DNA from: Desulfomonilia bacterium
GTDB lineage: Bacteria > Desulfobacterota > Desulfomonilia > UBA1062
Length of the DNA stretch: 64,000 bases
NCBI GenBank assembly: GCA_050014195.1
Contig: JBEKDT010000011.1
Coordinates: forward strand, 1 to 64,000
Direction of reading: 5' to 3'
The notes below the pieces were generated by a model. It ran no database searches, was not told the DNA's origin, and worked only from the letters and a program-made list of their open reading frames with translations. The translations under genes and the position numbers were made by a program. Position 1 is the first letter of the stretch. Every line of letters starts with the position of its first letter. This document shows positions 35,321 to 58,928 of this stretch, in pieces.

Positions 35321-35350
35321 AATTGGATCCTCCTTGATTTTTTTGGTTTT

Positions 35351-35405
35351 CCCGACCATCCGTGGCCGGGTTATTCATTTGTGATCAGCTTCCAGGTCCT
35401 GATCA
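35351..35405 (-). promoter_or_regulatory. Putative CsrA/RsmA binding hairpins in fliC leader
   Basis: CCCGGCC-ACGGAT-GGTCGGG hairpin; TGATCAG-GACCTGGAAG-CTGATCA hairpin containing GGA. Confidence 0.6.
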
Positions 35406-39859: not shown

Positions 39860-39978
39860 GAAAGTTTAAGGTATGCACGGCCTCATCATCTCTGCCAGCA
39901 TGGATCCTGATTGGTGCACTAACTCACTAGACAGTATCTAACTTTTGATAATCTTCAGACAAGAATCGGAGGCTCTTG

Positions 39979-40764: not shown

Positions 40765-40766
40765 TC

Positions 40767-42145: not shown

Positions 42146-43099
42146 ATGCACCTACCGGTAGGTCATAGGAGCCTCGGGAGAACCGGACTGACGGTCTCCG
42201 CTATTGCGCTTGGGACGGTCGAGCTCGGCCTTGACTACGGTATTGAGGCGCCGGGCGGCTATGGTAAACCATCCCAACAGGAGGCCAAGGCCATTGTACG
42301 AATGGCCTTGGAGAACGGGATCAACCTTTTCGATACCGCCCCGGCCTATGGGGAAAGCGAGGCCTTGCTTGGTCAGGTCCTCGATAAGAGTGATGCTATC
42401 ATCGCCACCAAGGTGAACATACCCCGGGACGAACAGGGGCATGTTCTGACCGGCAAGAATCTTAGGCGCAAACTAGAAGCATCCCTTGCCACGAGCATCG
42501 AAAGACTGAAGCGAGACCATCTTGATATCGTCCAGATTCATAACGTGACCACTGTAGTCTTAGAACAAGGCGAAATCACGGAATATCTTCTGCAGGCAAA
42601 ACAACAAGGCATGCTCCGTCACCTCGGCGCATCGGTTTATACCGTTGACGAGGCGCTGGCGGTCATCGCCTCCGGCCATTTTGATGTACTCCAGGTAGCC
42701 TACAATCTCCTTGATTGCCGTATGTCTATAAATGTTTTTCCCTCTGCCCAGGCGGCAGGGATTGGCATCATATCGCGTTCCGCCTTCCTCAAGGGGGTGC
42801 TTACCGACAAGTGGCAATATCTCCCGCCGGCATTGGCCGGACTTAAGGAGACGGTCCTACAAGTGCGGAATAGGCTGGATGGATCTTGTATGGAGCTCCG
42901 CGAAGCGGCATTACGTTTCTGTCTCAGCCATGAGGCAATCGCAACAGTCTTGGTGGGTGTGCGGACTGCCTCTGAACTTGAACAGGCCCTAGTAACCGCA
43001 CGTCAAGGAGCATTGACGCACGAACTGCGAGAAAAGATGGCATGCGTGAGAGTCAATGACGAGTGGCTCCTCAATCCCGCAAACTGGCCGGTGACATGA
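42146..43099 (+). CDS. Aldo/keto reductase
   Basis: LGRTGLTVSAIALGT, FDTAPAYG, IATK, QIHN, QVAYNLLD. Confidence 0.9.
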   Translation: MHLPVGHRSLGRTGLTVSAIALGTVELGLDYGIEAPGGYGKPSQQEAKAIVRMALENGINLFDTAPAYGESEALLGQVLDKSDAIIATKVNIPRDEQGHVLTGKNLRRKLEASLATSIERLKRDHLDIVQIHNVTTVVLEQGEITEYLLQAKQQGMLRHLGASVYTVDEALAVIASGHFDVLQVAYNLLDCRMSINVFPSAQAAGIGIISRSAFLKGVLTDKWQYLPPALAGLKETVLQVRNRLDGSCMELREAALRFCLSHEAIATVLVGVRTASELEQALVTARQGALTHELREKMACVRVNDEWLLNPANWPVT

Positions 43100-44130
43100 A
43101 GCGATCATTCTCCATTATCATGCGCTGTGATGGCGACAAGGAAATTGGATTGGGGCATGTATACCGTTGCCTCGTCCTTGCCCGTGAACTGCGAGATCAC
43201 TATTCGTGGGTTGTTCTGTTCGCCATGTCCTCAGGCATGGCTGGAATCTCAAAGGTACGAGACGAATTCTTCCCGGTAAATGTTAAGCCAGAGGGGATAC
43301 CTGAAGAGGTTTGGCTGGAATTGTTAGTCAATGAATTACATCCTGACGCTTTATTTTTTGATATCCGTACTGATTTGAAAAGGGAAGCAATTGAGCGATT
43401 GAAAATGAATTCTTCTTTAGTCGTTACGTTCGATGATGCGAGTGATCGACGGTTAGCTTCGGATCTGGCATTTTATCCTCCTGTCCCTCAGGCTCGGCGT
43501 CTCCGATGGCCGCACTATAAAGGTCAAGCGCTGATCGGTTGGGAATGGCTATTGGTTCAGGAAGAATATTATCGTCCGCGTTCGACGCATCAAAACGCAG
43601 TGCCGCGCATTTTGGTGACGATGGGCGGCAGTGATCCCGCGAATCTTACCTTACTGGCCATAAAGGCATTGGAAATGGTCGACGAAAAGATTACAGCCGT
43701 GTTGGTATTGGGCCCGGCATTCTCGCACGATGAGGAAATCTCGGACGCGTTGAGCAAAGCAAAGCGATCATACGAAATACATCGTAATCTGCCGGATCTC
43801 GTCGAGCAAGGATTGCACACTGACTTCGCTGTTGCGGCTTTTGGTGGAACTGCGTATGAAATGGCGGCAATGGGTGTGCCGACTGTTTTGCTTGGGCTTA
43901 CCGCAGACCATGCTGCATCAGCTCAATGCCTGGCTGATATTGGTTTGTCACTGAACTTAGGAGAAACGAGCGCAGTTACTCCCAGAAAGTTGGCCAAAGC
44001 TATTTCTGAAATCTTACAACGCCCCGCTTGGGTTGTTGCAGTTCCGGAAAAGGCACGAAAACTGTTTCGTACTCCTGGCGCACAAACTATGGCGAAAAAA
44101 ATTATGCAGGCTGTTGAGAGAATATTTTAG
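43096..44130 (+). CDS. pseG: PseG/SpsG-type UDP-sugar hydrolase (GT28-like)
   Basis: RCDG..IGLGHVYRCL, LVTMGGSD, FGGTAYE. Confidence 0.75.
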   Translation: MKRSFSIIMRCDGDKEIGLGHVYRCLVLARELRDHYSWVVLFAMSSGMAGISKVRDEFFPVNVKPEGIPEEVWLELLVNELHPDALFFDIRTDLKREAIERLKMNSSLVVTFDDASDRRLASDLAFYPPVPQARRLRWPHYKGQALIGWEWLLVQEEYYRPRSTHQNAVPRILVTMGGSDPANLTLLAIKALEMVDEKITAVLVLGPAFSHDEEISDALSKAKRSYEIHRNLPDLVEQGLHTDFAVAAFGGTAYEMAAMGVPTVLLGLTADHAASAQCLADIGLSLNLGETSAVTPRKLAKAISEILQRPAWVVAVPEKARKLFRTPGAQTMAKKIMQAVERIF

Positions 44131-44142
44131 GGAGAATGAAGC

Positions 44143-45324
44143 ATGGCAAACGCTTCAGTTACCATTATTGTGCCTATCTTCAATTCTGATAAATTTCTGG
44201 AAGAGACACTTCAGAGTATCCAGAATCAGTCCTATAAAAATATTCAAGTTCTCCTTATAGACGATGCCTCTTCAGATAGCTCACCGAAAATAATCAAAAA
44301 ATACATCGATTCAGATCCTCGGTTTCAAGCGTTTAAAAATGATTTCAATAGAGGTGTGTCTTACTCAACCAACGTGGGTTTGTCTAACGCTAATGGAGAA
44401 TACATAACATTTCACGATCATGATGATATAATGTTTCCCACTAAGATAGCTACTTGTGTCGATATCCTTGAAAAGCACACGAGTTTCGATGGTGTCATTT
44501 CAGTTGCTGAATATATTTCAGAGAACGGAGAATCTTTAGGAATAACAAGTTTATTGCCTGATTATATAACAACTAATCCGTATTTTGTAAGGGCCTTTGA
44601 AAGAAGCTATATCCCGACATGGGCGATGTTTTTAAGAAGTGAACTATTGAAAGATTTGCGTTTCGACAATGAAAATAAAATTGGCAATCAAGATGCAGAT
44701 TTGTTTCTCAGGCTATTGTATTTAAGGCCTCGTTTTTTTTATTTATCGTCACCTCAAAATAAATTCAGACAAGTTTCGGGGTCTCTATCAAAGAAATCAT
44801 CATCAAGTGTCGAAATATACAGAAAGCATAAAGATATTGATATTCGTGAACTTTATAAAGAGGCAGGTTATTGTGAAAGCATTATTAATTATGCGTTAGC
44901 AAGAGTCAACTTATGGCGTGAGGACAGTGCCTTAGCGCTTGATTACATACAGGCAGCACATCAAGGCATAGACGAAATCCCCCTTGAAGAACAAGATGGC
45001 GTTATTTTTATTCATGCAACATGCCTTTATCTGAATAAGTTATATGTACCTTGCCTTGAAGTTTTAAGCAATCTAAAAAATGGATCATATCAGGCTGAAG
45101 TTTTAAACAATCAGGGAGTTTGTTGGGCGCTGGTTGGAAATCTTTCCAAGGCTAAGAATTCCTTTGAAGGAGCTCTTTCTATTATGTCTGAGTATAAAGA
45201 TCCCAAAAATAATTTGAAAAATTTTATTTCGCCTCAATCAGAAACTGTTTGGCAGTACACAAGATTTCCACTCAGGAATTTATATAAAATCTTAAACATC
45301 TGCCCCCAATGGAGTTGCAAATGA
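44143..45324 (+). CDS. GT2 glycosyltransferase with C-terminal TPR
   Basis: IIVPIFN, IDDASSD, FHDHDD; AEVLNNQGV TPR. Confidence 0.85.
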   Translation: MANASVTIIVPIFNSDKFLEETLQSIQNQSYKNIQVLLIDDASSDSSPKIIKKYIDSDPRFQAFKNDFNRGVSYSTNVGLSNANGEYITFHDHDDIMFPTKIATCVDILEKHTSFDGVISVAEYISENGESLGITSLLPDYITTNPYFVRAFERSYIPTWAMFLRSELLKDLRFDNENKIGNQDADLFLRLLYLRPRFFYLSSPQNKFRQVSGSLSKKSSSSVEIYRKHKDIDIRELYKEAGYCESIINYALARVNLWREDSALALDYIQAAHQGIDEIPLEEQDGVIFIHATCLYLNKLYVPCLEVLSNLKNGSYQAEVLNNQGVCWALVGNLSKAKNSFEGALSIMSEYKDPKNNLKNFISPQSETVWQYTRFPLRNLYKILNICPQWSCK

Positions 45325-46664
45325 ACATTACAGAATTCTCTCCCAAATGGGGGAATTGGTTTTTACGGAATTTGGATAAAGTGGATTATGAGTGCGTATT
45401 TGAGCTTACCACGTCTTGCAATTATCACTGCGAATATTGTTCAAACGGAAGAGGTCGAGAAAATGAGGATGTTTCAAGGCGCGGTCAGACTCAAGAAGAT
45501 ATTCAGAAAATCATAAATTTTTTTGACTCAAACCAAACATGGCACATTGTCATTGGCGGTGGTGAGCCATCAATTCATCCAATGTTTTATGATCTAGTAG
45601 GCAAACTTTCAAAAAAACATTATATCAGTATTTATACTAATTTGTCCCTTGATTTGGAACGTTTGCTTGATTGCGTTCCACACGAAAAAATTGTGTCAGT
45701 GCGCTGCACTCTTCATAATCTAAAAAGCGAAAACATTTTTTTTCAAAAAATTGAAAGACTTAAAAAAGCAAACTTTAATCCTGCCATGGTGTTTGTAGCA
45801 ACACCAGAAAGAATAAATGAGATAGATCGCATTGCATCCAGGTGCAATCTTTTGGGAATCCCCTTATCTATTTTCCCTTTGGCAGGGCCCTATCGCAGCA
45901 AGATTTATCCTCATGACTACGATCAGAAAACAAAGGATTTTTTGCTCGAGCGTCCTTCCCTTGTTTTGTATCCAGGTCATCTTATCAGACTCCTTTCGAA
46001 TAAAGAGGGTCTTGTCACGGCTGGGTTTCAATGCACTGCCGGGTCTAGATTTTTTTCAATTCATGCCGAATCGGGTGCGATTGATCGATGTGAAGGTGTT
46101 CGTACCAAAATCGGGAATATTTATACAGGAGAATTCCTGCCAATGCATGGCGCTACGGAGTGTCCTTCTTCGTGCTGCATTGATTACTGTTTTGCTGATG
46201 ATCTTACCGACCAATATTATCAAAAATTCTTTTCAAGCCAAGTCAATGAAAAGGAAATGGTAGACAAAGCGATCCTTTTTGCCAAGGAATCTATGGAAAG
46301 ACTGGACGTCATGAGGAAAATCATGACCGAAAAGGCACATCAGCTAATTAAAGGCAAGAAGACTTTGCTATGGGGCAGCGGCATGGCAGGCAGTTTTTTT
46401 CTTCAGGCATATTCGGATCTCTTCGACGTTGATCATATAATAGGTTTTGTTGATACGAATGATGAAAAATGGGGCCATACAATTTATGGCAAAGAAATAT
46501 TTCCACCGCGAGCAATCGCAACAATTAAGCCTGATGTTGTATTGATCTGTGCGCCTGCTTTTGAAAATGAAATTTTCGAAATGGCTCATAAATGGGTTGA
46601 TTCCGGTGTACAAGTGTTAGGTCTTGAGAAAGATGTTACTAGGTCTTTATCTTATGGATTTTAG
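45321..46664 (+). CDS. Radical SAM protein with Cys-rich auxiliary region and C-terminal Rossmann-like domain
   Basis: CNYHCEYC, GGGEP, CTAG...C...CPSSCC..YC; LWGSGMAG..GFVD. Confidence 0.85.
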   Translation: MNITEFSPKWGNWFLRNLDKVDYECVFELTTSCNYHCEYCSNGRGRENEDVSRRGQTQEDIQKIINFFDSNQTWHIVIGGGEPSIHPMFYDLVGKLSKKHYISIYTNLSLDLERLLDCVPHEKIVSVRCTLHNLKSENIFFQKIERLKKANFNPAMVFVATPERINEIDRIASRCNLLGIPLSIFPLAGPYRSKIYPHDYDQKTKDFLLERPSLVLYPGHLIRLLSNKEGLVTAGFQCTAGSRFFSIHAESGAIDRCEGVRTKIGNIYTGEFLPMHGATECPSSCCIDYCFADDLTDQYYQKFFSSQVNEKEMVDKAILFAKESMERLDVMRKIMTEKAHQLIKGKKTLLWGSGMAGSFFLQAYSDLFDVDHIIGFVDTNDEKWGHTIYGKEIFPPRAIATIKPDVVLICAPAFENEIFEMAHKWVDSGVQVLGLEKDVTRSLSYGF

Positions 46665-46681
46665 AAAGTTGAGGTTGCATA

Positions 46682-47800
46682 ATGTTTAATGATATTTTGA
46701 GATCTCTTGGCAAGAAGGTTCTTTCCTATAGCGATGCCCTTAATTCTTTCAACCGTGCCGTCATATTTGGTGCTGGTGGTTCTGGAGAACACGCATACCA
46801 TTATTTGCGAGATAAAGGTAAAGAGGTCTTATTTTTTTGCGATAACAACAACTCCAAGCATGGAACATTCGTCGAGAGCATACAAATTTTATCACCGGAA
46901 ATTCTTCGGAAGCAGAAAGATCATGCCGTTATTATTGCTTCAGGTTGGGCGAAAGAAATAGCACTTCAACTGAAGTCTCTTGGTGTAAGTCAATATTATG
47001 ATTTTACTGATATTGTCTATATGTATCAACCAACTAAAAATTCTGAAGGTTTATGGGAAAAGCATTTCAATCCAATTATTTTTCAAGACCATGCAGCGGA
47101 AATTGACCGAATTTACGACGGCTTCAAGGATGAAGGGTCCCAGTGCGCCTTCCTTGGTGTTGTAAAATATAGAATGACCATGGACCCTTCCTATCTATGT
47201 ATTGCTGAATATCAACAATATTATCATCCTATTGTTAAGCCTTCAGCTAATCATGTTATTGTAGATGCCGGCGCGTGGAAGGGTGATATCTCTATAAGTT
47301 TTGCCAAACACCTCCATAAGCAGTGCAAAATTTATTCTTTTGAACCTTCCGAGCGCAATATAATAGATTTAAAAAATGAAATACTTAAGGAGCAAATGGA
47401 AGGAGTAATCGTACCTGTTCCAATGGGGGTCTGGGAAAAAGATGAAAAATATAAATTAAATATTACCGCAGATTATGATCAAGGATATTATCTTGATAAA
47501 GATGGCGAAGAGAGCATACTTCTGACTAGTTTGGACAGCTTTTCACAAAAAAATAATCTAAGTTATGATTTTATTAAGATGGATATTGAAGGAGCAGAAA
47601 CCTCTGCATTGAAGGGTGCAGAAAAATCACTCAAAAAATTTCATCCCGCACTGCAGATTTGTGTTTATCACAAACCGGAAGACTTATGGGAAATTCCGAG
47701 CATAATTGAACGATATTATGATAAGTGTGAATTCTATTTCGGCCATCATGGACAACACCTGCATGAGAGCGTTCTCTATGTCAATCCGTCTTCTGTATAA
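46682..47800 (+). CDS. FkbM family methyltransferase
   Basis: VDAGAWKG, YSFEP, FIKMDIEGAE, ICVYH. Confidence 0.9.
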   Translation: MFNDILRSLGKKVLSYSDALNSFNRAVIFGAGGSGEHAYHYLRDKGKEVLFFCDNNNSKHGTFVESIQILSPEILRKQKDHAVIIASGWAKEIALQLKSLGVSQYYDFTDIVYMYQPTKNSEGLWEKHFNPIIFQDHAAEIDRIYDGFKDEGSQCAFLGVVKYRMTMDPSYLCIAEYQQYYHPIVKPSANHVIVDAGAWKGDISISFAKHLHKQCKIYSFEPSERNIIDLKNEILKEQMEGVIVPVPMGVWEKDEKYKLNITADYDQGYYLDKDGEESILLTSLDSFSQKNNLSYDFIKMDIEGAETSALKGAEKSLKKFHPALQICVYHKPEDLWEIPSIIERYYDKCEFYFGHHGQHLHESVLYVNPSSV

Positions 47801-47881: not shown

Positions 47882-48649
47882 ATGAATATAAGATCTGACT
47901 TATGTTTAAAAAATAAAGTGGTGCTCGTTACCGGATCAAGCCGTGGCATCGGGCAAGCTATTGCCCTTGAGGCTGCTCGATCAGGCGCCGACATTGTTGT
48001 AACCTATCGTAAACAAGCTCACAGCGCCGAAAGCGTAGCTTCCGAGATACGCAAGCTTGAGAGAAAGGCGTTAGCTCTCCAGGTAGACGTCTCTTCCCGG
48101 GCAAGCATTAAAAAAATGTTTAGTCAAGTGCTTGAAACCTTTTCACGGATAGATGTGCTCGTGAATAATGCCGGGATTCTGCAGCAAAAACCTTTTATGA
48201 AACTATCCGAGGCGGACTGGGACCGCATAATGGATGTCAATCTGAAAGGCTCCTTCCTGTGCAGCCAGGCGGTCTTCCCCATCATGCAACGACAGGGGGG
48301 CGGGAGGATCATCAACATCTCATCCTCGGGAGGTCAGCTGGGCGGCACCCTGGCCGTCCACTATGCCGCCAGCAAGGCCGGGGTGATCTGCCTGACCAAG
48401 TCACTGGCGCGCATTGGAGCGCCGCATGGTATCCTGGTCAATTGTATCGCCCCAGGGCTCATTGAAACCGAGATGACGCGGCAAGAAATAGATTCGACCG
48501 AAGGACAGGAAAAAATCCGCCAGATCCCCCTTAAACGAACCGGGACTCCGGAAGAAATCGCCCAGAGCGTGATCTTCCTTGCTTCTGAAAATGCAAGCTA
48601 CATAACCGGCCAGACAATCAACATCAATGGCGGACTCTATATGGGGTGA
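47882..48649 (+). CDS. SDR oxidoreductase (FabG-like)
   Basis: TGSSRGIG, NNAG, YAASK, IAPG, YITGQ. Confidence 0.92.
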   Translation: MNIRSDLCLKNKVVLVTGSSRGIGQAIALEAARSGADIVVTYRKQAHSAESVASEIRKLERKALALQVDVSSRASIKKMFSQVLETFSRIDVLVNNAGILQQKPFMKLSEADWDRIMDVNLKGSFLCSQAVFPIMQRQGGGRIINISSSGGQLGGTLAVHYAASKAGVICLTKSLARIGAPHGILVNCIAPGLIETEMTRQEIDSTEGQEKIRQIPLKRTGTPEEIAQSVIFLASENASYITGQTININGGLYMG

Positions 48650-48664
48650 TCAGGGAAGACAAGG

Positions 48665-50374
48665 ATGGTTATGGGCATACTCGGTGCTGATGTGATTGTG
48701 GAAAGTTTTCTGGAGCATGGTCTGTGCAGGGTCTTCACCTACCCCGGCGGAACCCTGGCCCCTATTTTTGAAGCCTGCATAAAGCACAACATCGACATTT
48801 TCTGTGCACGGCACGAACAGGGATCGGGCTACGCCGCGTTGGCTATAGCACGCTTGACGAGGATACCTCAGGTGGTCATGGTGACTTCTGGGCCCGGCGT
48901 CACCAATCTGATCACCTGTATAGCAGACGCCTTCTTTGATTCTGTTCCACTCGTTGTTATCACAGGCCAGGTCGGGACGGCTGATCTCACCTGCGGCCGC
49001 AAGGTGAGACAATGCGGTTTCCAGCAGGTGGATACCATCGCTATCACCAAATCCATCACGAAAGGAGTCTTTCAGCCCCTAAGTTCTGGAGAACTGAGAT
49101 CTGTGATGAGCGATGCCTTTGCCCTCGCGTCGGATGGCAGGCCCGGACCTGTCGTAGTGGATATGCCCATGGATGTTCAGAGGGCTCAGCAGGACACAAC
49201 CATGGTGCCTGCCAGGAAACCCGCCGCGGTTCCGGAGCGCCCGCCATCCGGTTCCATAGAAAAAGCATCCCAGTGGCTGCTTGAGGCCAAGCGCCCGGTT
49301 ATCCTCGCCGGCCAAGGCGTACTGATGGCGGATGCATGCAAGGAACTGCGGGATTTGGCGCTGAGCATGGGCATACCCGTGGTCATGAGCCTGCTGGGAT
49401 TAGGGTCATTCCCCTCGAACGAACCGCTGGCCCTGGGATTTGTCGGGCATACGGGTAACCTTTATGCGGCGAATGCGCTCCAGCATGCGGATTATGTCTT
49501 AATCGTCGGCGCCCGCTTGGATTTGCGGCAGACCGGAACGCTCACCGACCAATTCGTTCCAAAAGGGAGAAAAGTTCGAATCGATATCGATCCCGATGAA
49601 CTGCTCTACCCCAGGATACAGGTCGACTTGAGCATTAACGCGGATGCCAAACAGACCCTCCGGGATATCCGCGAAGCCCTGCCTGCCAATGCAGAATTAG
49701 ACATAGAACCGTGGCGCAGACAGGTTGGGGAATGGAAATCTCAATACCGGCTGTCTTATGAGCGTAACAGATCGACGATCAAGCCCCAGCACATCATCGA
49801 GGCCACGAACGAACTGACCAAAGACCGCAGCACGGTTGTCGTTTCCGGCGTGGGGTCCCATCAACAATGGACAGCGCGTCACTTTTCCTTTGATTACCCG
49901 AACCGGGCCTGGTTGACTTCCGGTGGTCACGGCGCCATGGGCTTCGACCTGCCCACGGCCATCGGGGCGCATCTCGCGCGGCCCAATGATCTTATCCTGT
50001 GCCTGGTGGGCGACGGATCGCTCCAGATGAATATCCAGGAGCTTAAGACCGTGGAAGAAACCGGCGGGGCGATAAAGATCGTTGTCCTGGACAATAGCCG
50101 TCTTGCCATGGTCTCCCAGTTTCAACTCCTCACTTGGAAGTCCGATCCAGTAACCGGGTCCAAGAAGAACCCGGACTTTGCCGCCATTGCTAGGGCCTAT
50201 GGCATACGGGCCTGGACGCTGAAAGATACGCAAGCGATTCATTCCACCATCCAGGCGGCCCTCGATCATAAAGGTCCGGCCCTTGTGCATTGTCTCGTGG
50301 ATCATGGAGAGGATGTCGTGCCTATGCTTCTGGCGGGACAGGCCCTTGATAGGATGTGGCCGAATGAAGGATAA
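48665..50374 (+). CDS. TPP-dependent acetolactate-synthase-like enzyme
   Basis: YPGG, RHEQG, TSGPG.TN, GVGSHQ, SGGHGAMGF, GDGSLQMN..N. Confidence 0.9.
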   Translation: MVMGILGADVIVESFLEHGLCRVFTYPGGTLAPIFEACIKHNIDIFCARHEQGSGYAALAIARLTRIPQVVMVTSGPGVTNLITCIADAFFDSVPLVVITGQVGTADLTCGRKVRQCGFQQVDTIAITKSITKGVFQPLSSGELRSVMSDAFALASDGRPGPVVVDMPMDVQRAQQDTTMVPARKPAAVPERPPSGSIEKASQWLLEAKRPVILAGQGVLMADACKELRDLALSMGIPVVMSLLGLGSFPSNEPLALGFVGHTGNLYAANALQHADYVLIVGARLDLRQTGTLTDQFVPKGRKVRIDIDPDELLYPRIQVDLSINADAKQTLRDIREALPANAELDIEPWRRQVGEWKSQYRLSYERNRSTIKPQHIIEATNELTKDRSTVVVSGVGSHQQWTARHFSFDYPNRAWLTSGGHGAMGFDLPTAIGAHLARPNDLILCLVGDGSLQMNIQELKTVEETGGAIKIVVLDNSRLAMVSQFQLLTWKSDPVTGSKKNPDFAAIARAYGIRAWTLKDTQAIHSTIQAALDHKGPALVHCLVDHGEDVVPMLLAGQALDRMWPNEG

Positions 50375-51590
50375 AACACTTCTGGTTATTAGCGGTGGGT
50401 TCGAAGCCGTCCCGGGTATCCGGCATGCGCGGGACATGGGATGCCATGTGGTCGTCACGGACCAGAACCCTGCAGCGCCTGGGTTTCTTGAAGCCCATGA
50501 CCACCTGATCGCCAGCACGTACGATATCGAAGCCACCGTTCAGGCCGCCAAACAGTATGCGAAGAAAGTCCGTCCCATCGATGGGGTACTATCGATTGCC
50601 TCGGATGTCCCAATGACGGTAGCGAGTGTGGCCGCATCGCTGGGTCTGCCTGGCATCCCCATCGAAAGCGCCAGGATAGCATCAGACAAGTTGGTCATGA
50701 AACGATGCTTCCAGGAGAAAGGAATACCCATCCCATGGTTTTCCGAAATATCATCGCTGGATCATCTCAAAGATGTCGTCACCAGTCAAGCTCAACCACT
50801 GGTTCTTAAGCCGGTTGATAGTCGCGGTGCCCGAGGGGTGTTGCGACTGATCGGTGCCCTTGATCTCGCATGGGCCTATCAGCATACCCTGGCATGCTCG
50901 CCCTCGGGCCGTGTCATGGTCGAAGAGTACCTGGATGGGCCGCAGATCAGCACCGAATCTATCCTTATAGACAATCAGGGTTACACACCGGGATTCGTAG
51001 ACAGGAACTATGAGCTCCTTGAGCGCTTTGCCCCCCATATCATCGAAAACGGCGGGCACCAGCCATCGATCCTCTCCGATGAGGCACGGGCTGCAGTCTC
51101 GGAAATGGCTGTTGATGCCGGGCGGGCGATAGGCGTAACAACGGGGATCGTCAAGGGTGATATGGTATATACCTCCGATGGACCCAAAGTCATCGAGATC
51201 GCTCCTAGGCTCTCTGGCGGATGGCTATGTACGGACCAGATCCCGCTTGCCACGGGGATTGATTTTGTAGGAGCGGCCATCCGGCTGGCCCTGGGAGAGA
51301 ATGTGGATGCAGGGGATCTATCACCCTCTCACCAACGCGGTGTGGCAATTCGTTACTTTTTCCCTGCACCAGGACGCGTAGCGGAGATATTGAATACCCA
51401 GAAGTTTCTGGGCTCCGATTGGCTTCATAAGCTGATCTTCTTCGTCCAGCCCGGAGACTTTCTGGAACCGTACACGAATCATACGAGACGTGCCGGGTGT
51501 GTCATCACCACCGGAGAAACGCGTGAAGATGCCATAGCCCGCGCCCGGGAAGTAACCACAACCATCCGGTTCGTAACCACGAGGGAGTGA
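50364..51590 (+). CDS. ATP-grasp ligase
   Basis: DKLVMK, VLKPVDSRGARGV, VEEYLDG, VIEIAPRLSG. Confidence 0.88.
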   Translation: MKDKTLLVISGGFEAVPGIRHARDMGCHVVVTDQNPAAPGFLEAHDHLIASTYDIEATVQAAKQYAKKVRPIDGVLSIASDVPMTVASVAASLGLPGIPIESARIASDKLVMKRCFQEKGIPIPWFSEISSLDHLKDVVTSQAQPLVLKPVDSRGARGVLRLIGALDLAWAYQHTLACSPSGRVMVEEYLDGPQISTESILIDNQGYTPGFVDRNYELLERFAPHIIENGGHQPSILSDEARAAVSEMAVDAGRAIGVTTGIVKGDMVYTSDGPKVIEIAPRLSGGWLCTDQIPLATGIDFVGAAIRLALGENVDAGDLSPSHQRGVAIRYFFPAPGRVAEILNTQKFLGSDWLHKLIFFVQPGDFLEPYTNHTRRAGCVITTGETREDAIARAREVTTTIRFVTTRE

Positions 51591-53549
51591 ATGTCCCGTC
51601 TAAAACTCTATGCAATTTTTCACCTCAACCTGGCCTACTCCTCCATTGAAGAAGACCTGCGGACTGAAGTGATTCGTAGCTGCTACTGGCCGTTGTTGAA
51701 CCTAATAAAAGAGTATCAGGTCCCATTTGCTATTGAGGCCTCTGGTTTTACCCTGGAAACCATTGCGAGTTTGGATCCTAATTGGATTTCAACCTTCAAA
51801 GAACTGAACAAGCCGGATCTCTTCGTGGGAAGCGGCTATGCCCAGTGTATCGGCCCACTGCTTCCGGCTGAAGTCAACTACTGGAACCAGGACCTAGGCA
51901 TGCAGGTGTATAAGGATCTTCTCGGATTTCATCCCGAGATCGCCCTAGTAGGCGAGATGGCCTATTCGGCCGGGATTGTCGACGAGTATGTGCAGTCCGG
52001 CTACAAGGCCATTGTTATGGAGTGGAACAACCCCAAGAAATTTCACCCCGCTTGGCCGACGGAGCTCAAGTATCATCCGCAGCTGGCTCTCAGCGCCTCG
52101 GGTGCCGGGATACCTCTCATCTGGGCCGACTCGATCGCCTTTCAGAAATTCCAACGCTATGTGCACGGCGAACTCGACCTGGAAGAATACCTCACTTACA
52201 TCGCCGGGCATGACAACGGCACCCACAGGTACTTTCCCCTGTATGCCAATGACGCCGAGATCTTCGATTTCCGTCCCGGCCGGTATAAAACCGAAGGGCA
52301 GCGCCAAGGACGCGAATGGGAGCGCATCCGAAACTTATTCAATACCCTGAAGCAGCTATATACCATCGTGCCGCCGGCCGCGGTGCTGGGCGGTCTCGCT
52401 GATGATCTCTCCGGACAAAAGTTGCACCTGGAAGCACCCGGCCAACCCATCCCGGTCAAGAAGCAGGAGAAATATAATATCAATCGTTGGGCTCTGACTG
52501 GCCGTGACGACCTCGGCTGCAACACGGTCTGCTACCAGATCTATCAGGGCATGCGCTCGGCAAACCCCACCAGGGACGATTGGAAGGAGCTCTGCTATCT
52601 CTGGTCCAGCGATTTCAGGACCCACATCACCACCGCAAGGTGGGCGGCATACCAAAAACGCCTGCAGGATGCTTGCCAAAGGTGGCGAAGCAAGGAAATT
52701 CTTGAACGGAAAGACAGTCTCCCGATCCATACACCATTCAAAACGGACGGGCTTTGCATTACTGAAGACGCCCGCTACCTTGCCATCGAAACCGACAAGC
52801 TGGCCTGCACCCTTGATAAGGCCAAGGGTTTGGTGTTCAAATCCTTGGTTTTCAAGGATGTCTGTGCCGCCCCTTTGATTGGAACGCTACCGCACGGGTA
52901 TTATGAAGACATCTCCTGGGCGGTGGATTTCTTTTCCGGACATACGATTATCGAGACACCCGGGGAACACAAGATCACGGATCTGGGCCGCTGCGAAGTT
53001 GAAATGGAGCTCTGCGAGAGCTCGCTCCTGTTGGCTACCGTTCTGGAATCCAATGAGATCCGTTTCATGAAAACCATCGAAATAGATCTTGTGGACGGTT
53101 ATATCGCTCTGGGTCTCGACATCCACATACCTTCCCGGATGCTCGCAACCATCCATGTTCTCAACATGACCTTGATCCCGACTTCATTCGACCAGAAATC
53201 GGTGTTCTTTGCCACGCATTTGGGTGGCAAGGCTATCGAAACCTTCCACATAGGTTCAAGGGAGATCCACCATGCGCGCGGCCTTTCGGCCCTGGTGTCC
53301 GCGCAGCATGGCCTTGGAACGACGGAAGGAGAGATTATTATCGGCGATGCGGACAAAAGCTTGATCTTCCGTCACGACCAGTCATATTCAGCTTTAATCG
53401 CGCATGTCCATTTCTCGCCGATGCAGGATGAACAGTATTTCCTGCGACTGGAATATTCCGCCCAGGAAATGGACGAGACCTTCCGTGAAGCGCCGGAACC
53501 CTACCGCATCCGGGCGCGGGTTAAGATAGAAGCGAGAAGTCGTGGATAA
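51591..53549 (+). CDS. GH57-like (glycoside hydrolase/deacetylase barrel) protein
   Basis: FHLNLAYSSI, CYWPLL, SGFTLE, EMAYS, NDAEIFD, LWSSDFRTH. Confidence 0.65.
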   Translation: MSRLKLYAIFHLNLAYSSIEEDLRTEVIRSCYWPLLNLIKEYQVPFAIEASGFTLETIASLDPNWISTFKELNKPDLFVGSGYAQCIGPLLPAEVNYWNQDLGMQVYKDLLGFHPEIALVGEMAYSAGIVDEYVQSGYKAIVMEWNNPKKFHPAWPTELKYHPQLALSASGAGIPLIWADSIAFQKFQRYVHGELDLEEYLTYIAGHDNGTHRYFPLYANDAEIFDFRPGRYKTEGQRQGREWERIRNLFNTLKQLYTIVPPAAVLGGLADDLSGQKLHLEAPGQPIPVKKQEKYNINRWALTGRDDLGCNTVCYQIYQGMRSANPTRDDWKELCYLWSSDFRTHITTARWAAYQKRLQDACQRWRSKEILERKDSLPIHTPFKTDGLCITEDARYLAIETDKLACTLDKAKGLVFKSLVFKDVCAAPLIGTLPHGYYEDISWAVDFFSGHTIIETPGEHKITDLGRCEVEMELCESSLLLATVLESNEIRFMKTIEIDLVDGYIALGLDIHIPSRMLATIHVLNMTLIPTSFDQKSVFFATHLGGKAIETFHIGSREIHHARGLSALVSAQHGLGTTEGEIIIGDADKSLIFRHDQSYSALIAHVHFSPMQDEQYFLRLEYSAQEMDETFREAPEPYRIRARVKIEARSRG

Positions 53550-53627
53550 ATCGCCGAATCAGTGCTTTCGCATATTCCCTGAATTTGCTGTACTGATAAG
53601 GTGAGTTTGCTAAAAAGGAGATTTTTG

Positions 53628-56600
53628 ATGCGCGTACTCTTTTCACTCGAACCGCTTTATGAACTCAATGAGCCTGGCGTGATGGATACCTGGCTGCAAT
53701 GGTTTGCGCATATGCACGCACAGCTGGGTGCCATTATCCCCGGATATCAGGGAAAACTGCTTGCTTTCGACGGTATCACCTATAGGAACAACAAGGATTT
53801 TTTGGGTGATCGCATCCTCCTCTCACAAGCGGAAATACGTGGAAACTGGAAGTTCAGAGGCAATATCCTCAGCAAGATCGAATACGGTGACATCGATACC
53901 GAGATCGAAAATTACATTTGTCAAACCGTACGGGAAAAACTGGAAGGTTTCACGCCGGAGGTGGTAATCCTACTAAATACATCACCATGGCTGCGCAAGG
54001 TCTGCGCTGAGGCTACCTTCCTGTATACCGAAGTTTCCTGGCTCCATCGCCCTCCCTATCCGAACCATTGGCAGATCAATCCATTAGGGCTGGGAAAAGG
54101 CAAGGTACTAGAAGCCTATCATGACGAAATCTTGGGTCAAATCGAGTACACAGATGCCCAGCAGTACTTCACTTCGACGTTCAAGAAAATAGCCCAATCG
54201 AAGATTGTTAACAATCGTGATGCCGGCGATCTAGTCACATCACTTCGAAAGCTGTTCTCAAAAGTCATATTATTACCCCTAGCGGGCCGTTTCCCTTTTG
54301 ACAGGGACACACCAATCTTTGCATGGATAGACCATTTCATGCAAAATGCCCCATCGGATACCTGCTATCTCATTACGGATCACCCTCTTACACTTTCACT
54401 TCAAGCAGGTGAAGCAACCTATCTCAAATCGAAATACGGCAATGTATTCTTTGATGGAAAAATGCAGAAACCTATCGGCACCCAGTTTTTGATACCTCAT
54501 GTGGATGCCGTATATGGTGATTTCAGCAGTGTGGCGAATCAGGCCTTGTTTTTTGATGTCGATGTACTCTCATTTGCACAGGACATCGCCTTGAACATAC
54601 CCAGAAATACGTCTTCAAATCCGCTCAGCAATTTAACTTCCATGGCATCACCGGACCTCAGAGACAAAATCCTCTATTGGCTGTTGACCCATAGTAGCGT
54701 GCCAGCCCACAAATTGTTCGACGGCAAGTGGCTGCTGGACTTCATTACGACCGCGCGCACATGTGGCGCGGCTCAACAACCTTGGTTACAGTTCACTAAG
54801 CCGCTCTATGCAATGGACGAGTGGCAGCGGGATGAATGGTGCCAGGATTTCACGTTGCTCAGCCCCAACAACAAGACTACACAGGTAACACCCAGAATCG
54901 CCCCGACAACAGGGACTGACATCCAGCCCCCCCTTCAATCTTCGATACCGCCTTTGGTACGAAACTCCTCAAACGCCCCCACCATGAAGGGCCACACTAG
55001 CGAACAGATCGTGCAAGCCATTGCATTTTATCTACCCCAGTATCACCCCATCCCGGAAAATGATGAGTGGTGGGGGAAAGGGTTCACCGAGTGGACGAAT
55101 GTTGCCAAGGCAAGACCGCTCTTCCCCGGACATTATCAACCCCATATACCCGCTGACCTTGGTTTCTATGACCTCCGACTTCCTGCAACACGTGAGGCTC
55201 AAGCCGAATTGGCAAAACAATATGGAATTTCAGGGTTCTGCTACTACCACTACTGGTTCAACGGCAAACGGCTCCTGCATCAAATCTTTGATGAAGTCAT
55301 TGCGACGGGCAAACCGGATTTCCCCTTCTGCCTGTGCTGGGCCAACGAGAACTGGACAAGGGCCTGGGATGGCCGCCATGGAGACATACTTATTGAACAG
55401 AACTACTGCGAAGAAGATGATAGAAATCACATACGGTGGCTTCTGAGGGTCTTTAAGGACAAACGCTATATACGAATAGACAACAAACCCCTCATGCTCA
55501 TCTATCTCTCGAAAAGTCTTCCCAATGCTGGCAGGACTGTGGACATATGGCGCGAAGAGGCAAAAAAGAACGGCGAGGGGCTTTACTTGTGCAAAGTTGA
55601 GAGCGCTCCCTGGGAGTATGGAGATCCTCGTTTGAATGGTTTCGATGCTTGTGTCGAATTTCAACCTGACTGGGGCAATTTGGGGCCTGTCAAGAGGCAA
55701 TTGCCGAACGGACATGTTCTATATGACTATCCTACGATCGTCGAAAGAATGCTTAATAAGCCTATTCCTCCGTACAAACGCTTCCCATGCGTTACGCCGA
55801 TGTGGGACAATTCTCCCCGTAAGAAACAGGCCGCGTTGGTCATCAATAATTCCACACCAGATCAATATGAAAGGTGGCTGAGATCCGTTATCGGTAAACT
55901 AGAGGCTCTCAACCTAGACGACAATATCGTTTTTATCAATGCTTGGAATGAATGGGGTGAGGGTAATCACCTTGAGCCCGACGCAAAGAATGGGAAAGCA
56001 TATCTTGAGGCAACTAAAAAAGCGTTATCGATAACACCGCATCAGTTAAAAACCGTTACCAAAGAACTTGTCTCCATCGTGATTCTCACCTTCAATCAGC
56101 TTGAATACACAATAAAGTGCGTTGAAAGCATTGAAAAGCATACACCAGAGCCGTATGAGATCATCTTTGTGGATAATGGATCTTCTGATGGCACTCGGGA
56201 CTACCTAAAGGGGTATGCCAAAAACCATGATAACGTCGTACTTATTCTGAATGACGAGAACAAGGGTTTTGCGGGAGGCAATAACCAAGGCATCGCTCAG
56301 GCCAAGGGCAACTATATAGTATTGCTGAATAACGATGTGGTGGTTACCGATCATTGGCTCGAACGCCTCATCGCCCATTTGGAAATACATCCGGATATCG
56401 GTATGGTCGGCCCCATGAGTAATGCAGTGTCGGGCCCCCAGCTGGTTCCGAATGTCTCCTACGGAGACAACATGAAGGCCATGCAGAGATTCGCCCGAGA
56501 TTTCACTGCCGGATACGCGGGCAAATCGGCAGAGATTATGAGGCTCGTGGGTTTCTGCCTCCTCATTAAAAAGGAGGTGATCGATGTCATCGGGGGCTTG

Positions 56601-57212
56601 GACGAGAACTACGTTAGCGGTAATTACGAGGACGATGACCTCTGCCTGAGGGCCTTAATTGCAGGCTATAAAAACATTATCGCCCATGATGTTTTCATCC
56701 ACCATTACTGCAGCATGACATTTAAGGGCAATGCCATCGATCACCAGGCCACCATGAAAGATAATCACCAGTACTTCGCCAATAAATGGAAGGACCTCGT
56801 CGAAGTCAGAGGAAACGGGTACAGGGTCAGATTTACAAAGGAACAGCAGTTGAAGAAACTCATCGAATGGGGGGAAGAGAGGTTCTCCCAGGGGGATGTC
56901 CGGTCTGCGTTGAAAATCTTCGAGAGAACACTCCACCTCGACAGAACAAACCCCCAGGCACTGAATAACATCGGCGTCATCCAGTGGCAGCTGGGCGACA
57001 CGATCTCGGCCATGAATACCTTCCAGATCTCCCTGAGCATCAATCCCAAAGACCCTGACGCCCTGGGAAACCTCGTGCAGGCAGCCACCAAGACGGAAAG
57101 ATTCGATCTGCTGAAGCAGAATCTGCTGGATATCCTGAAACAGGAACAACCGGATAACCCTGATGTCGTGAAGCTCATCAATGCACAACAGAGCTCAGTG
57201 AGCACGATATGA
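53628..57212 (+). CDS. Multidomain protein: unknown N-terminal domain + WbsX/GH99-like + GT2 + TPR
   Basis: IAFYLPQYH..NDEWWGKGFTEW, NAWNEWGEG; VDNGSSDGT, LLNND, EDDD; ALNNIGV TPR; AAGGAG RBS. Confidence 0.85.
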   Translation: MRVLFSLEPLYELNEPGVMDTWLQWFAHMHAQLGAIIPGYQGKLLAFDGITYRNNKDFLGDRILLSQAEIRGNWKFRGNILSKIEYGDIDTEIENYICQTVREKLEGFTPEVVILLNTSPWLRKVCAEATFLYTEVSWLHRPPYPNHWQINPLGLGKGKVLEAYHDEILGQIEYTDAQQYFTSTFKKIAQSKIVNNRDAGDLVTSLRKLFSKVILLPLAGRFPFDRDTPIFAWIDHFMQNAPSDTCYLITDHPLTLSLQAGEATYLKSKYGNVFFDGKMQKPIGTQFLIPHVDAVYGDFSSVANQALFFDVDVLSFAQDIALNIPRNTSSNPLSNLTSMASPDLRDKILYWLLTHSSVPAHKLFDGKWLLDFITTARTCGAAQQPWLQFTKPLYAMDEWQRDEWCQDFTLLSPNNKTTQVTPRIAPTTGTDIQPPLQSSIPPLVRNSSNAPTMKGHTSEQIVQAIAFYLPQYHPIPENDEWWGKGFTEWTNVAKARPLFPGHYQPHIPADLGFYDLRLPATREAQAELAKQYGISGFCYYHYWFNGKRLLHQIFDEVIATGKPDFPFCLCWANENWTRAWDGRHGDILIEQNYCEEDDRNHIRWLLRVFKDKRYIRIDNKPLMLIYLSKSLPNAGRTVDIWREEAKKNGEGLYLCKVESAPWEYGDPRLNGFDACVEFQPDWGNLGPVKRQLPNGHVLYDYPTIVERMLNKPIPPYKRFPCVTPMWDNSPRKKQAALVINNSTPDQYERWLRSVIGKLEALNLDDNIVFINAWNEWGEGNHLEPDAKNGKAYLEATKKALSITPHQLKTVTKELVSIVILTFNQLEYTIKCVESIEKHTPEPYEIIFVDNGSSDGTRDYLKGYAKNHDNVVLILNDENKGFAGGNNQGIAQAKGNYIVLLNNDVVVTDHWLERLIAHLEIHPDIGMVGPMSNAVSGPQLVPNVSYGDNMKAMQRFARDFTAGYAGKSAEIMRLVGFCLLIKKEVIDVIGGLDENYVSGNYEDDDLCLRALIAGYKNIIAHDVFIHHYCSMTFKGNAIDHQATMKDNHQYFANKWKDLVEVRGNGYRVRFTKEQQLKKLIEWGEERFSQGDVRSALKIFERTLHLDRTNPQALNNIGVIQWQLGDTISAMNTFQISLSINPKDPDALGNLVQAATKTERFDLLKQNLLDILKQEQPDNPDVVKLINAQQSSVSTI

Positions 57213-57293
57213 CGGGCATGAAGGCCATCTCACAGACCACAACCTTTACCACAGTCGGACGTGGCAAGAGACCGGGCATGACGGTGTGACAGC

Positions 57294-58928
57294 ATGAAGA
57301 AACCGACCCTCGGTGCGATCATGATCGTGAAGAACGAGGAGAAGAATCTCGGTGGGATCCTCTCTGATATCAGTGGTGTCGTGGATGAGATCTGTATCGT
57401 GGATACCGGATCCTCAGACGGAACGATCCCGGTGGCCGAGTCCTTCGGGGCCAAGATCGGGCATTTTCCATGGATCGACGACTTCTCGGCCGCACGGAAT
57501 CATTCCATTGAACTCGCCAGCTCTGATTACCTGCTCTGGCTTGATGCGGATGACCGGGTGGACGAAGAGGACCGGAAGGCACTCGGTGCACTCAAAATCC
57601 GTTTGAGCCGCGAAAAGGACAAGGCCTACGAGCTGAAGATCCTCAGTAGCTCTAAGAACATGCCGAACATGGTCTGCTACCAGCCCAGGATCATCCCCAA
57701 CAGGAGGGGTGTGCGCTTTACCGGCCGAGTGCATGAACAGATCCTCCCTGCTTTGGAACAGAATGGTGTCATTATAGAGCCGGTCAATATCGTCATCCGG
57801 CACACCGGCTATCAAAACCCGGATGCCCGTCCTGCAAAGGCCCGGCGGAACTTGGGCATTCTCATGAAAGAGCTCCATGAGGGGAAGGACACAGCCACCC
57901 AGTGCTTCTTCATCGCCATGACCTCCATGGTCTTGGAGAAGTATGAACAGTGCCTCAGATACCTCACCATGGCCCGGCAAAAACGCACAGACGAGGACTG
58001 GTATCACATCAGCTTTACCATATCGACGGAATGCCTGCTCAGGCTGAAGCGTGTGGAAGACGCCCGGCAAGAGATCGCCCGGGGTATAGCCATCTTCAAG
58101 GAGAGCCCACTGCTGCACTATTATCACGGGTTCGTTTGCATGCAGGCCGGGCTGTTCACCGAAGCAGCCGGGGCACTCAAGAAGGCCGCCACCCTGCCGC
58201 CCGGGATAGATGCATACCCTACCCCGCCTGATCTGGACACGATTATCCTCCTCGAGTATGGCAAGGCCCTGGAAAAATTGGGGAGAATGAAGGAAGCCAT
58301 TGAAACTTACACGCGTGCCCTGAAGGCGGGAACCCGGCAGAAAGAGTTGCACTATGCTCTAGGCACGGCCTTGGCCTCAATTGGCGACATCGACACAGCC
58401 ATAACGTACCTTAAAGAAGCAAAGAACCTTGCTCCCACCACCGACACATCGCTTTTCCTTAGCCTGGCAAGGCTTCTACGATACAAAAAAATGTATACCG
58501 AGGCGCATCAAATCTATCTTGAGGCACTCGCTTATGAACCACATGACCTCAAGGCCTTGACGGGTCTGGTTCTCACAAGCGTGGCAACGAATGACATAGA
58601 GCATGTGACCTTGTCCCTTGAGACCCTGATGCACCAATCCGGCATGGACCCCAACCGTGAGGTACAGAACATTGAGGATCTTGCTAATCTTTGCGTTGAT
58701 GTGGGAAAAGCAGTCCTCAATCGTGGAAACCCCAGCGATGCAGCGACATTAGCCGAAGCAGCCTGGATGCTTGACAACAACTGCTGGATCGCGCAACTCC
58801 TTGTGGCGGACATAGCTTACCTTGAAAACAACATCCAACGCGCCATCTCCTCTCTCGAAATCGCGCTGTGTGCAGGGGCACCTTGCATGGAGGTAGAGCA
58901 GAGAATGACGCTCATTCAAAATTTATGA
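57294..58928 (+). CDS. GT2-TPR glycosyltransferase (candidate flagellin transferase)
   Basis: MIVKNEE, VDTGSSD, DDFSAARN, WLDADD, VHEQ, IRHTGY; TPRs. Confidence 0.88.
   Translation: MKKPTLGAIMIVKNEEKNLGGILSDISGVVDEICIVDTGSSDGTIPVAESFGAKIGHFPWIDDFSAARNHSIELASSDYLLWLDADDRVDEEDRKALGALKIRLSREKDKAYELKILSSSKNMPNMVCYQPRIIPNRRGVRFTGRVHEQILPALEQNGVIIEPVNIVIRHTGYQNPDARPAKARRNLGILMKELHEGKDTATQCFFIAMTSMVLEKYEQCLRYLTMARQKRTDEDWYHISFTISTECLLRLKRVEDARQEIARGIAIFKESPLLHYYHGFVCMQAGLFTEAAGALKKAATLPPGIDAYPTPPDLDTIILLEYGKALEKLGRMKEAIETYTRALKAGTRQKELHYALGTALASIGDIDTAITYLKEAKNLAPTTDTSLFLSLARLLRYKKMYTEAHQIYLEALAYEPHDLKALTGLVLTSVATNDIEHVTLSLETLMHQSGMDPNREVQNIEDLANLCVDVGKAVLNRGNPSDAATLAEAAWMLDNNCWIAQLLVADIAYLENNIQRAISSLEIALCAGAPCMEVEQRMTLIQNL

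Follow-up and report, generated by a model that had tools for sequence, protein, structure and literature searches.

The question raised by this locus is what a short-chain dehydrogenase/reductase (SDR), a thiamine diphosphate (ThDP) enzyme, an ATP-grasp ligase and a protein related to glycoside hydrolase family 57 (GH57) do together in the distal part of a flagellin glycosylation island. The island is located in a window of 64,000 nt, i.e., the whole stretch of DNA analyzed, which corresponds to positions 1-64,000 of contig JBEKDT010000011.1 of Desulfomonilia bacterium (GCA_050014195.1). Motility, filament assembly and phage/host recognition are all influenced by the nonulosonic acids of flagella, S-layers and capsules, whose N-acyl groups are highly diverse. 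By analogy of gene content, the four genes are best explained as the tailoring part of a flagellin pseudaminic acid (Pse) glycosylation island of the sfm type, which is described in Shewanella oneidensis. It is somewhat favored that the ThDP enzyme and the SDR make a hydroxy-acid and that the ATP-grasp ligase couples it to the amine that in the canonical pathway is acetylated by PseH.

The four-gene cassette and its enzymes

All four open reading frames (ORFs) of the cassette lie on the plus strand and are co-directional, in the following order.

47882-48649, plus strand: FabG-like SDR, 255 amino acids (aa; P0001)
48665-50374, plus strand: acetohydroxyacid synthase (AHAS)-like ThDP enzyme, 569 aa (P0002)
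50364-51590, plus strand: ATP-grasp ligase, 408 aa
51591-53549, plus strand: GH57-like protein, 652 aa (P0004)

The tight packing of these genes reported in an initial annotation of the window (a 15-nt gap, an 11-nt overlap and a 0-nt gap) was verified from the junction sequences. The stop codon TGA of the SDR gene (48647-48649) is followed by a 15-nt gap with a purine-rich GGGAAG/AAGG motif and by the ATG of the ThDP gene (48665), the ATP-grasp gene starts (ATG, 50364) before the ThDP gene has ended (TAA, last nucleotide 50374), and the TGA of the ATP-grasp gene (51588-51590) abuts the ATG of the GH57-like gene (51591), which is preceded by GAGGGAG. The start of the ATP-grasp gene was assigned to ATG 50364, not to the upstream TTG 50283 of the listed ORF, in agreement with the N-termini of 25 aligned homologues. 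According to the ORF and domain calls of the window, no ilvN, ilvC or alsD adjoins the cassette, as the annotation had stated for ilvN and ilvC; an FkbM methyltransferase on one side and a WbsX/GT2/TPR protein on the other are found there instead.

The ThDP enzyme carries the Pfam domains TPP_enzyme_N, TPP_enzyme_M and TPP_enzyme_C and shares with IlvB/AHAS and YerE-type ThDP enzymes the three-domain ThDP fold, the catalytic Glu motif RHEQG and the ThDP motif GDGS...N. Its nearest solved structures were AHAS (E about 1e-101), and no entry named YerE was present, both among the 60 best of 122 PDB matches. Against the model of the biosynthetic AHAS large subunit (TIGR00118) a score of 509 bits was obtained, under the cut-off of 538.35. 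The housekeeping ilvB (868 bits) is located on the same contig outside the window, with the only ilvN of the genome directly downstream, and its product is 38% identical to P0002. P0002 and the cassette ThDP enzymes of other phyla contain a 6-residue insertion after GQVGT that is without counterpart in the housekeeping copy, and carry RLDxRQTG instead of RFDDRVTG and VSQFQ instead of VRQWQ (Trp to Phe). Besides the score under the cut-off, P0002 is thus unlike biosynthetic AHAS in having no small subunit, in the insertion and in the Phe that takes the place of Trp in the QWQ motif. Because ilvB-ilvN is located elsewhere, the identity is 38% and the cassette signature is absent from the housekeeping copy, P0002 is identified from its sequence as a cassette-type AHAS paralogue without a regulatory subunit; the concern of the initial annotation that the ThDP enzyme might be the housekeeping AHAS is removed.

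The SDR (adh_short_C2 in Pfam, 1.7e-70) has TGxxxGIG, NNAG and YxxxK motifs in its translation. Its best NCBIfam matches were of the FabG type; the broad subfamily model NF009466 was passed (262 bits, cut-off 222), and none of the equivalog NCBIfam models was passed. The protein is proposed as the candidate ketoreductase of the acid branch. The ATP-grasp protein matched LAL_C2 (60.2 bits, cut-off 29.4), ATP-grasp_3 (37.7 bits) and ATPgrasp_N in Pfam and was aligned in a set of 26 sequences (A2), and its best solved relative was the L-amino acid ligase BL00235 (3vot, E 3.3e-19). Judged by fold and by the LAL_C2 match, it is a predicted carboxylate-amine ligase of the L-amino-acid-ligase type, and it is proposed as the candidate N-acylating enzyme. 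Prediction of a complex of this ligase with residues 1-372 of the GH57-like protein, both supplied as alignments, gave a score of 0.00 ("no answer"), which speaks neither for nor against binding.

The GH57-like protein matched Glyco_hydro_57 in Pfam with 39.7 bits (gathering threshold, 21.2), the match being restricted to residues 27-144 (118 residues), and no NCBIfam family was matched. Its AlphaFold2 (AF2) model (pLDDT, 85.8; pTM, 0.88) is composed of an N-terminal (beta/alpha)7 barrel, a helical linker and a C-terminal beta-sandwich. The top Foldseek match of the model was the GH57 4-alpha-glucanotransferase of Thermococcus litoralis (1k1x, E 1.6e-22), followed by GH38 mannosidases; among the matches listed (best 50), all were GH57 or GH38 proteins save the last, a beta-galactosidase, and no CE4 deacetylase was present. 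In a profile alignment to 1k1w, E122, D221 and E223 correspond to E123, D214 and E216, respectively; all three residues are invariant in 22 sequences, and in the model they are found where barrel strands 117-119 and 213-221 end. Glu123 and Asp214 of the T. litoralis enzyme are taken here to be its nucleophile and acid/base. The family also has an invariant basic loop, PIPVKKQEKYNINRW, and the motif WSSDFRTH, neither of which was seen in the aligned glucanotransferase, and the translation opens straight at the first barrel strand, with no N-terminal export signal apparent by eye.

The Glu/Asp site, the basic loop and the lack of an apparent export signal together point to an enzyme of the glycosidase type that works in the cytoplasm on an anionic substrate, and not to a de-N-acylase or an amylase. 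Most likely, as far as its sequence can tell, the protein acts on a cytoplasmic intermediate, by hydrolysis or transfer at a glycosidic or sugar-nucleotide bond. The initial annotation had proposed inspection of the active site for metal ligands versus a Glu/Asp pair, and this pair is present as E122 and D221; in view of the same pair and of the Foldseek matches, its assignment of the protein as a de-N-acylase is not supported. The protein resembles the T. litoralis enzyme (1k1w/1k1x) and GH38 alpha-mannosidases in the barrel, the beta-sandwich and the aligned Glu/Asp pair, and differs from 1k1w/1k1x in an identity of about 12% and in a context of nonulosonic-acid tailoring, not of alpha-glucan metabolism; this genomic context argues against an alpha-glucan activity.

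Full-length relatives of the GH57-like protein number in the thousands and are mostly unnamed; a profile of 22 sequences returned 686 clusters (50% identity) at E<=1e-30 from 1.84 billion representatives. No GH57-like fusion was found among proteins of at least 1142 aa, which is weak evidence, and a 1199-aa GH57-like frame in genome G143 was rejected as a high-GC reading-frame artefact that overlaps a separate ATP-grasp ORF. A metagenomic protein of 957 aa (P0266; one sequence, two contigs) joins the GH57-like part to an Antibiotic_NAT (aminoglycoside 3-N-acetyltransferase) domain at residues 720-936. This fusion again puts the family beside an amine-acylating enzyme and is taken as a lead only; an Antibiotic_NAT-type domain was absent from the window and from the 80 related loci described below.

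Two specific roles of the GH57-like protein were considered, and neither found support. A substitution for PseG is rejected in view of a PseG-like gene in 8 of 10 GH57-like-positive genomes, all under the cut-off; of the two genomes without a match, G300 and G272, the former was examined and holds a very divergent PseG-like domain fused to a CMP-transferase. Of the PseG motifs, only the N-terminal one, of the GxGH type, is preserved (18 bits) in the C-terminal 336 aa of this 598-aa CMP-transferase (locus L096, 5974-7770). A UDP-glucuronate hydrolase feeding the acid branch finds no support in the genomic context, an NDP-sugar dehydrogenase being located within 10 kb in just 1 of the 80 loci.

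Recurrence across loci and genomes

A scan of one genome per species yielded 80 related loci. Going by record titles, they are spread over more than 15 phyla, and an archaeon and several bacteria of the candidate phyla radiation are among them, as are Syntrophorhabdus aromaticivorans UI and Desulfuromonas sp. CSMB_57. Neighborhood counts were restricted to the 56 loci whose upstream flank extends for 9 kb or more. The ATP-grasp gene ends 400 nt or less upstream of the GH57-like gene in 38/56 loci and is located within 5 kb in 51/56; an SDR gene is present within 5 kb upstream of the GH57-like gene in 40/56, and an AHAS-like ThDP enzyme within 5 kb in 9/56. At least one Pse gene was found in the locus in 47/56 cases and a flagellin in 7/56. 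The cassette arrangement is beyond chance. The initial annotation had considered that the genes might not occur together elsewhere; the ATP-grasp/GH57-like pair, usually with the SDR, does stand beside Pse genes in related loci, and this recurrence supports its claim that the four genes form one sugar-tailoring module.

The type of ThDP enzyme was assigned by ORF clustering in 79 loci, from -8 to +5 kb around the GH57-like gene. A split transketolase was found in 23 and an AHAS-like enzyme in 10, so that a sugar-type ThDP enzyme of either family is present in 33/79, and neither was found in 46. Both families transfer C2 units, and the ThDP step is conserved in function, not in family. Because it is missing in 46/79 loci, and because the AHAS-like cassette enzyme was not found at E<=1e-140 in the other 300 genomes sampled from the phylum of the window, the ThDP enzyme is accessory and not core. 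The core of the cassette is the ATP-grasp/GH57-like pair, the SDR is a frequent member and the ThDP enzyme is a replaceable accessory, of which the window has the rarer form.

In the sample of this phylum (301 genomes), the GH57-like family was detected in 13 genomes; the three other genomes from the family to which the window belongs were all negative. PseC over the cut-off was found in 11/13 GH57-like-positive genomes vs 33/288 others. PseH over the cut-off was found in 4/301 genomes and in 0/13 GH57-like-positive ones, numbers so small that their cross-tabulation with the GH57-like family is uninformative.

The NeuB ORFs of the related loci (48 in total) are mostly of the subtype of the window. 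Thirty-three are 320 aa or shorter, five are fused and longer than 400 aa, and ten have the canonical length, with just 28-36% identity. The fusions of the five other loci are 535-638 aa long and have differing extensions. A home-made PseH profile built from five PseH-like sequences gave one weak match only (20 bits) in the 80 loci. The co-occurrence of the cassette with short NeuB and without PseH, which the initial annotation had proposed to look for, is therefore seen across loci; the "short NeuB" holds for 33/48 ORFs and does not hold for the window itself, where NeuB is a fusion of 573 aa.

A methyltransferase of about 390 aa (Methyltransf_23 plus Methyltransf_14, with a C-terminal domain of the C-methyltransferase type) is present in 39 loci. 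One locus (L073, 4091-7993; a Rhizomicrobium metagenome-assembled genome by record title) contains genes for a sulfotransferase, a methyltransferase, a split transketolase, an SDR, an ATP-grasp protein and the GH57-like protein, then PseB, PseC and flagellin, a variant that points to a sulfated form of the decoration.

The Pse island around the cassette

The features of the island outside the cassette are as follows.

31388-34042, minus strand: FliD (FliD_N/C)
34544-35359, minus strand: flagellin (Flagellin_N/C)
35955-36983, plus strand: PseB-like dehydratase (Polysacc_synt_2, 1.5e-102)
36993-38141, plus strand: PseC aminotransferase (TIGR03588, 463 bits, over the cut-off of 423.5)
38138-39859, plus strand: NeuB fusion, 573 aa (NeuB, 8.7e-57, residues 24-241; without SAF domain)
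39976-40764, plus strand: CMP-transferase (Pfam/NCBIfam calls)
40740-42080, plus strand: class-III (GSA-like) aminotransferase (Pfam/NCBIfam calls)
42146-43099, plus strand: aldo/keto reductase (Pfam/NCBIfam calls)
43063-44130, plus strand: PseG-like protein (TIGR03590, 134 bits, under the cut-off of 153.55)
44143-47800, plus strand: low-GC insert (GT2; radical-SAM protein with C-terminal Methyltransf_14; FkbM methyltransferase with a Methyltransf_14-like N-terminus)
53601-60628, plus strand: three TPR-bearing glycosyltransferases (1203 aa, WbsX+GT2+TPR; 544 aa and 586 aa, GT2+TPR)

The FliD and flagellin genes are divergent from the Pse operon, and their products are the likely glycosylation target of the island. 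The NeuB of the window is the sole match over 60 bits in the genome; its 318-aa C-terminal extension has neither a Pfam match nor a homologue in the 80 loci, and a class I SAM methyltransferase (score 0.93) was returned for it from a language-model Atlas, which is a lead only. The block of CMP-transferase, class-III aminotransferase, aldo/keto reductase and PseG-like genes repeats in 15-17/56 loci, mostly Acidobacteriota by record title.

The GC content of 44143-47800 is 37-38%, vs about 55% on both flanks, and this segment occupies the place of the methyltransferase of about 390 aa found in other loci; it looks like a separately acquired replacement of that gene. No Maf protein (PF01973) was found in the genome, and the three TPR-bearing proteins are candidate non-Maf flagellin glycosyltransferases. 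In the largest of them, the N-terminal 470 aa without domain assignment are followed by WbsX, GT2 and TPR.

PseH (TIGR03585) gave 0 matches at E<=0.001 in the genome, which is 100% complete by estimate. With the home-made profile the window yielded only an 18.9-bit match to a GNAT domain at 15.7-17.7 kb; its source is a 625-aa acetyl-CoA hydrolase/transferase with a C-terminal GNAT domain (15794-17671). Farther along, a 2925-aa protein with GT2, glucoamylase-like and GH94 domains (17985-26762) resembles cyclic beta-1,2-glucan synthase.

Proposed route, rival explanations and known systems

The system used for comparison was the flagellin modification of S. oneidensis MR-1. According to Bubendorfer et al. 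2013 (PMC3765264), sfmABCDE encode a 290-aa NeuB, a 581-aa IlvB-like ThDP enzyme, a 255-aa FabG-like SDR, a 395-aa methyltransferase and a 412-aa ATP-grasp protein, and are genetically required for modification of the flagellins. The same study describes the glycan as mono-N-acetyl Pse (274 Da) plus a 236-Da moiety (C9H16O7) with 0-2 O-methyl groups, and states that clear orthologues of PseH, PseG, PseI and PseF are lacking. According to a later preprint (bioRxiv 10.1101/2023.12.03.569772), the 236-Da moiety had yet to be defined as of 2023, and So3261 is regarded there as PseI.

The analysis established the order and families of the genes, the paralogy of the ThDP enzyme, the conservation of the cassette, the lack of PseH and the presence of the catalytic residues; the chemistry given next is inferred throughout. 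PseB and PseC would produce UDP-4-amino-4,6-dideoxy-AltNAc, and PseH would not be there to acetylate its amine. The AHAS-like ThDP enzyme would join a C2 unit of pyruvate to a 2-oxo-acid acceptor, reduction of the new keto group by the FabG-like SDR would yield a hydroxylated acid, and the methyltransferases of the island may then methylate this hydroxy-acid. The ATP-grasp ligase would activate the acid as an acyl phosphate and link it as an amide to the free amine, i.e., the future N7 of Pse. Completion of the nucleotide-activated sugar would fall to the SAF-less NeuB, the CMP-transferase and the divergent PseG-like protein, and the TPR-bearing glycosyltransferases would place it on flagellin. 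The GH57-like protein, the constant partner of the ligase, would act with its glycosidase-type site on a cytoplasmic intermediate. Of the first reading given in the initial annotation, the ligation of a ThDP/SDR-made acid in place of PseH action is retained here, as it fits the SAF-less NeuB, the absence of PseH and the sfm gene set; the half in which the GH57-like protein removes an N-acyl group is dropped.

Several points weigh against this route. Both absences noted above count here, namely that of any ThDP enzyme from 46/79 loci and that of the AHAS-like type from the other genomes sampled, and the contrast in PseH is weak, PseH being rare in the phylum anyway. The likeness to sfm is one of published sizes and domain names. 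In the mass spectrometric data of S. oneidensis (PMC3765264), the 274-Da unit appears as a free oxonium ion, which would more readily arise through a glycosidic than through an amide link to the 236-Da moiety. C9H16O7 is also too large for a plain acetolactate-derived acid, so that the specific acid proposed in the initial annotation is unlikely to be the whole story, and the role of the GH57-like protein is left unexplained.

The annotation had also considered a C-branched or C2-extended sugar, in which a YerE-like C2 transfer to a keto- or aldehyde-sugar is followed by reduction of the acetyl group by the SDR, a neutral branched sugar becomes part of the Pse/flagellin glycan and the ATP-grasp protein does something else. 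The interchange of AHAS-like and split-transketolase enzymes, which both transfer C2 units to carbonyl acceptors, would suit such a sugar, and so would the methyltransferase of 39 loci, whose C-terminal domain is typical of NDP-sugar C-methyltransferases; the formula of the 236-Da moiety, C9H16O7, could be that of a neutral C9 sugar just as well as that of an acid, and the 274-Da oxonium ion is in keeping with such a sugar. It is nevertheless unlikely, for it gives no role to the ATP-grasp ligase, the most conserved member (adjacent in 38/56 loci), nor to the absence of PseH, and PseC, which is present, uses up the 4-keto group needed by a YerE-type reaction. The precedents of Treponema denticola and Tannerella forsythia, moreover, are N-acyl groups, that of T. 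denticola being reportedly on N7. That the four genes serve another glycan of the island, e.g., a sugar added by the WbsX/GT2/TPR transferases, and are mere neighbors of the Pse genes is judged quite improbable. The three large glycosyltransferases directly downstream, the low-GC insert between PseG and the cassette and the sugar-type ThDP enzymes in 33/79 loci would be compatible with this; the link to Pse in 47/56 loci and at the genome level (11/13 vs 33/288) stands against it, as does the near absence of the transferases from related loci (0/80 for the WbsX domain and for one GT2-TPR protein of the two, 1 to 7 for the other GT2 pieces).

GH57 shares the clan of (beta/alpha)7 barrels with carbohydrate esterase/deacetylase families, and a swap of the N5 acyl group would need a deacetylase; on these grounds the GH57-like protein could be a metal-dependent de-N-acetylase, leaving N5 open to re-acylation by the ATP-grasp ligase. 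This is highly improbable in view of E122 and D221/E223, which lie where barrel strands end and have E123 and D214/E216 as their counterparts in the T. litoralis enzyme, and of the absence of a deacetylase among the best 50 Foldseek matches listed; with PseH absent, a free amine is already there and deacetylation is needless. Ordinary metabolism, i.e., synthesis of branched-chain amino acids, acetoin or butanediol together with an amylase, is suggested by the best families (AHAS, FabG/BudC-like SDR and GH57) and can practically be dismissed, since ilvB-ilvN is located elsewhere, the ThDP enzyme scores under the AHAS cut-off, ilvC, ilvN and alsD are not adjacent, the GH57 match spans just 118 residues with no NCBIfam family, and the context is flagellin glycosylation. 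Beyond the hydroxy-acid route itself, we put forward as a tentative extension, doubtful as it stands, that the GH57-like family represents a new activity of the GH57/GH38 clan, a cytoplasmic retaining (trans)glycosidase acting on a nucleotide-sugar or sugar-acid and obligatorily coupled to amine N-acylation, and that AHAS-like carboligation on a sugar-derived 2-oxo acid leads to a branched methylated acid on N7 of Pse. If so, the cassette would encode the unsolved 236-Da type of flagellin decoration as well as a general ATP-dependent diversification of nonulosonic acids in bacteria and archaea.

To our knowledge, the GH57/GH38 clan is known only for alpha-glucan and mannoside chemistry, and the GH57-like family would add a non-glucan function to it. 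When the literature was searched for GH57 or ATP-grasp proteins in connection with flagellin, pseudaminic acid or nonulosonic acids, neither the GH57-like partner nor an ATP-grasp N-acylase of these sugars came up, and no characterized ATP-dependent enzyme that installs groups other than the acetyl type on nonulosonic acids was found in the literature searched. The constant ATP-grasp/GH57-like pair is tied to variable acid-making enzymes in more than 15 phyla, and the cassette offers a way to learn what the still-undefined flagellin glycan of Shewanella looks like and how it is made. The system is of a kind that is genetically known and chemically unsolved, and its constant member is an undescribed, very widespread enzyme family. 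The "new route" of the initial annotation is accordingly kept for the chemistry and given up for the gene set, a similar one being already known genetically in Shewanella as sfmABCDE.

When compared with the canonical PseB-PseC-PseH-PseG-PseI-PseF pathway, as given for T. forsythia in PMC5378307, the window shares PseB, PseC, a PseG-like protein, a NeuB-family synthase and a CMP-transferase. It differs in having no PseH, in PseG and NeuB scores under the equivalog cut-offs, in a NeuB without SAF domain and in four extra tailoring genes. Varied acyl groups on Pse are described elsewhere: T. forsythia has Pse5Am7Gra (PMC5378307), and PseI of Campylobacter jejuni tolerates varied C7 amides, according to PMC13576459. 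The flagellin glycan of T. denticola, cited in PMC13439194 from Kurniyati et al. 2017, is 2-methoxy-4,5,6-trihydroxy-hexanoyl-Pse. A Pse with a long O-methylated polyhydroxy-acyl group on flagellin is the type of product that would be expected of the cassette; the likeness is one at the glycan level.

The sfm system differs from the window in that no GH57-like gene is described for it, in the order of genes (ThDP enzyme-SDR vs SDR-ThDP enzyme in the window) and in transfer via Maf proteins, vs a genome without Maf and a NeuB that carries the 318-aa fusion. By domains and sizes the window has the gene set of the sfm type, with methyltransferases of other families (FkbM and rSAM-Methyltransf_14) and with NeuB fused. 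The two have in common a SAF-less NeuB, an IlvB-like ThDP enzyme (581 vs 569 aa), a FabG-like SDR (255 aa in both), a methyltransferase and an ATP-grasp protein (412 vs 408 aa), and in both these genes are located beside pseB/pseC and flagellin genes, with no clear PseH in the species. By this likeness, sfmABCDE appears to be the closest described system to the cassette of the window.

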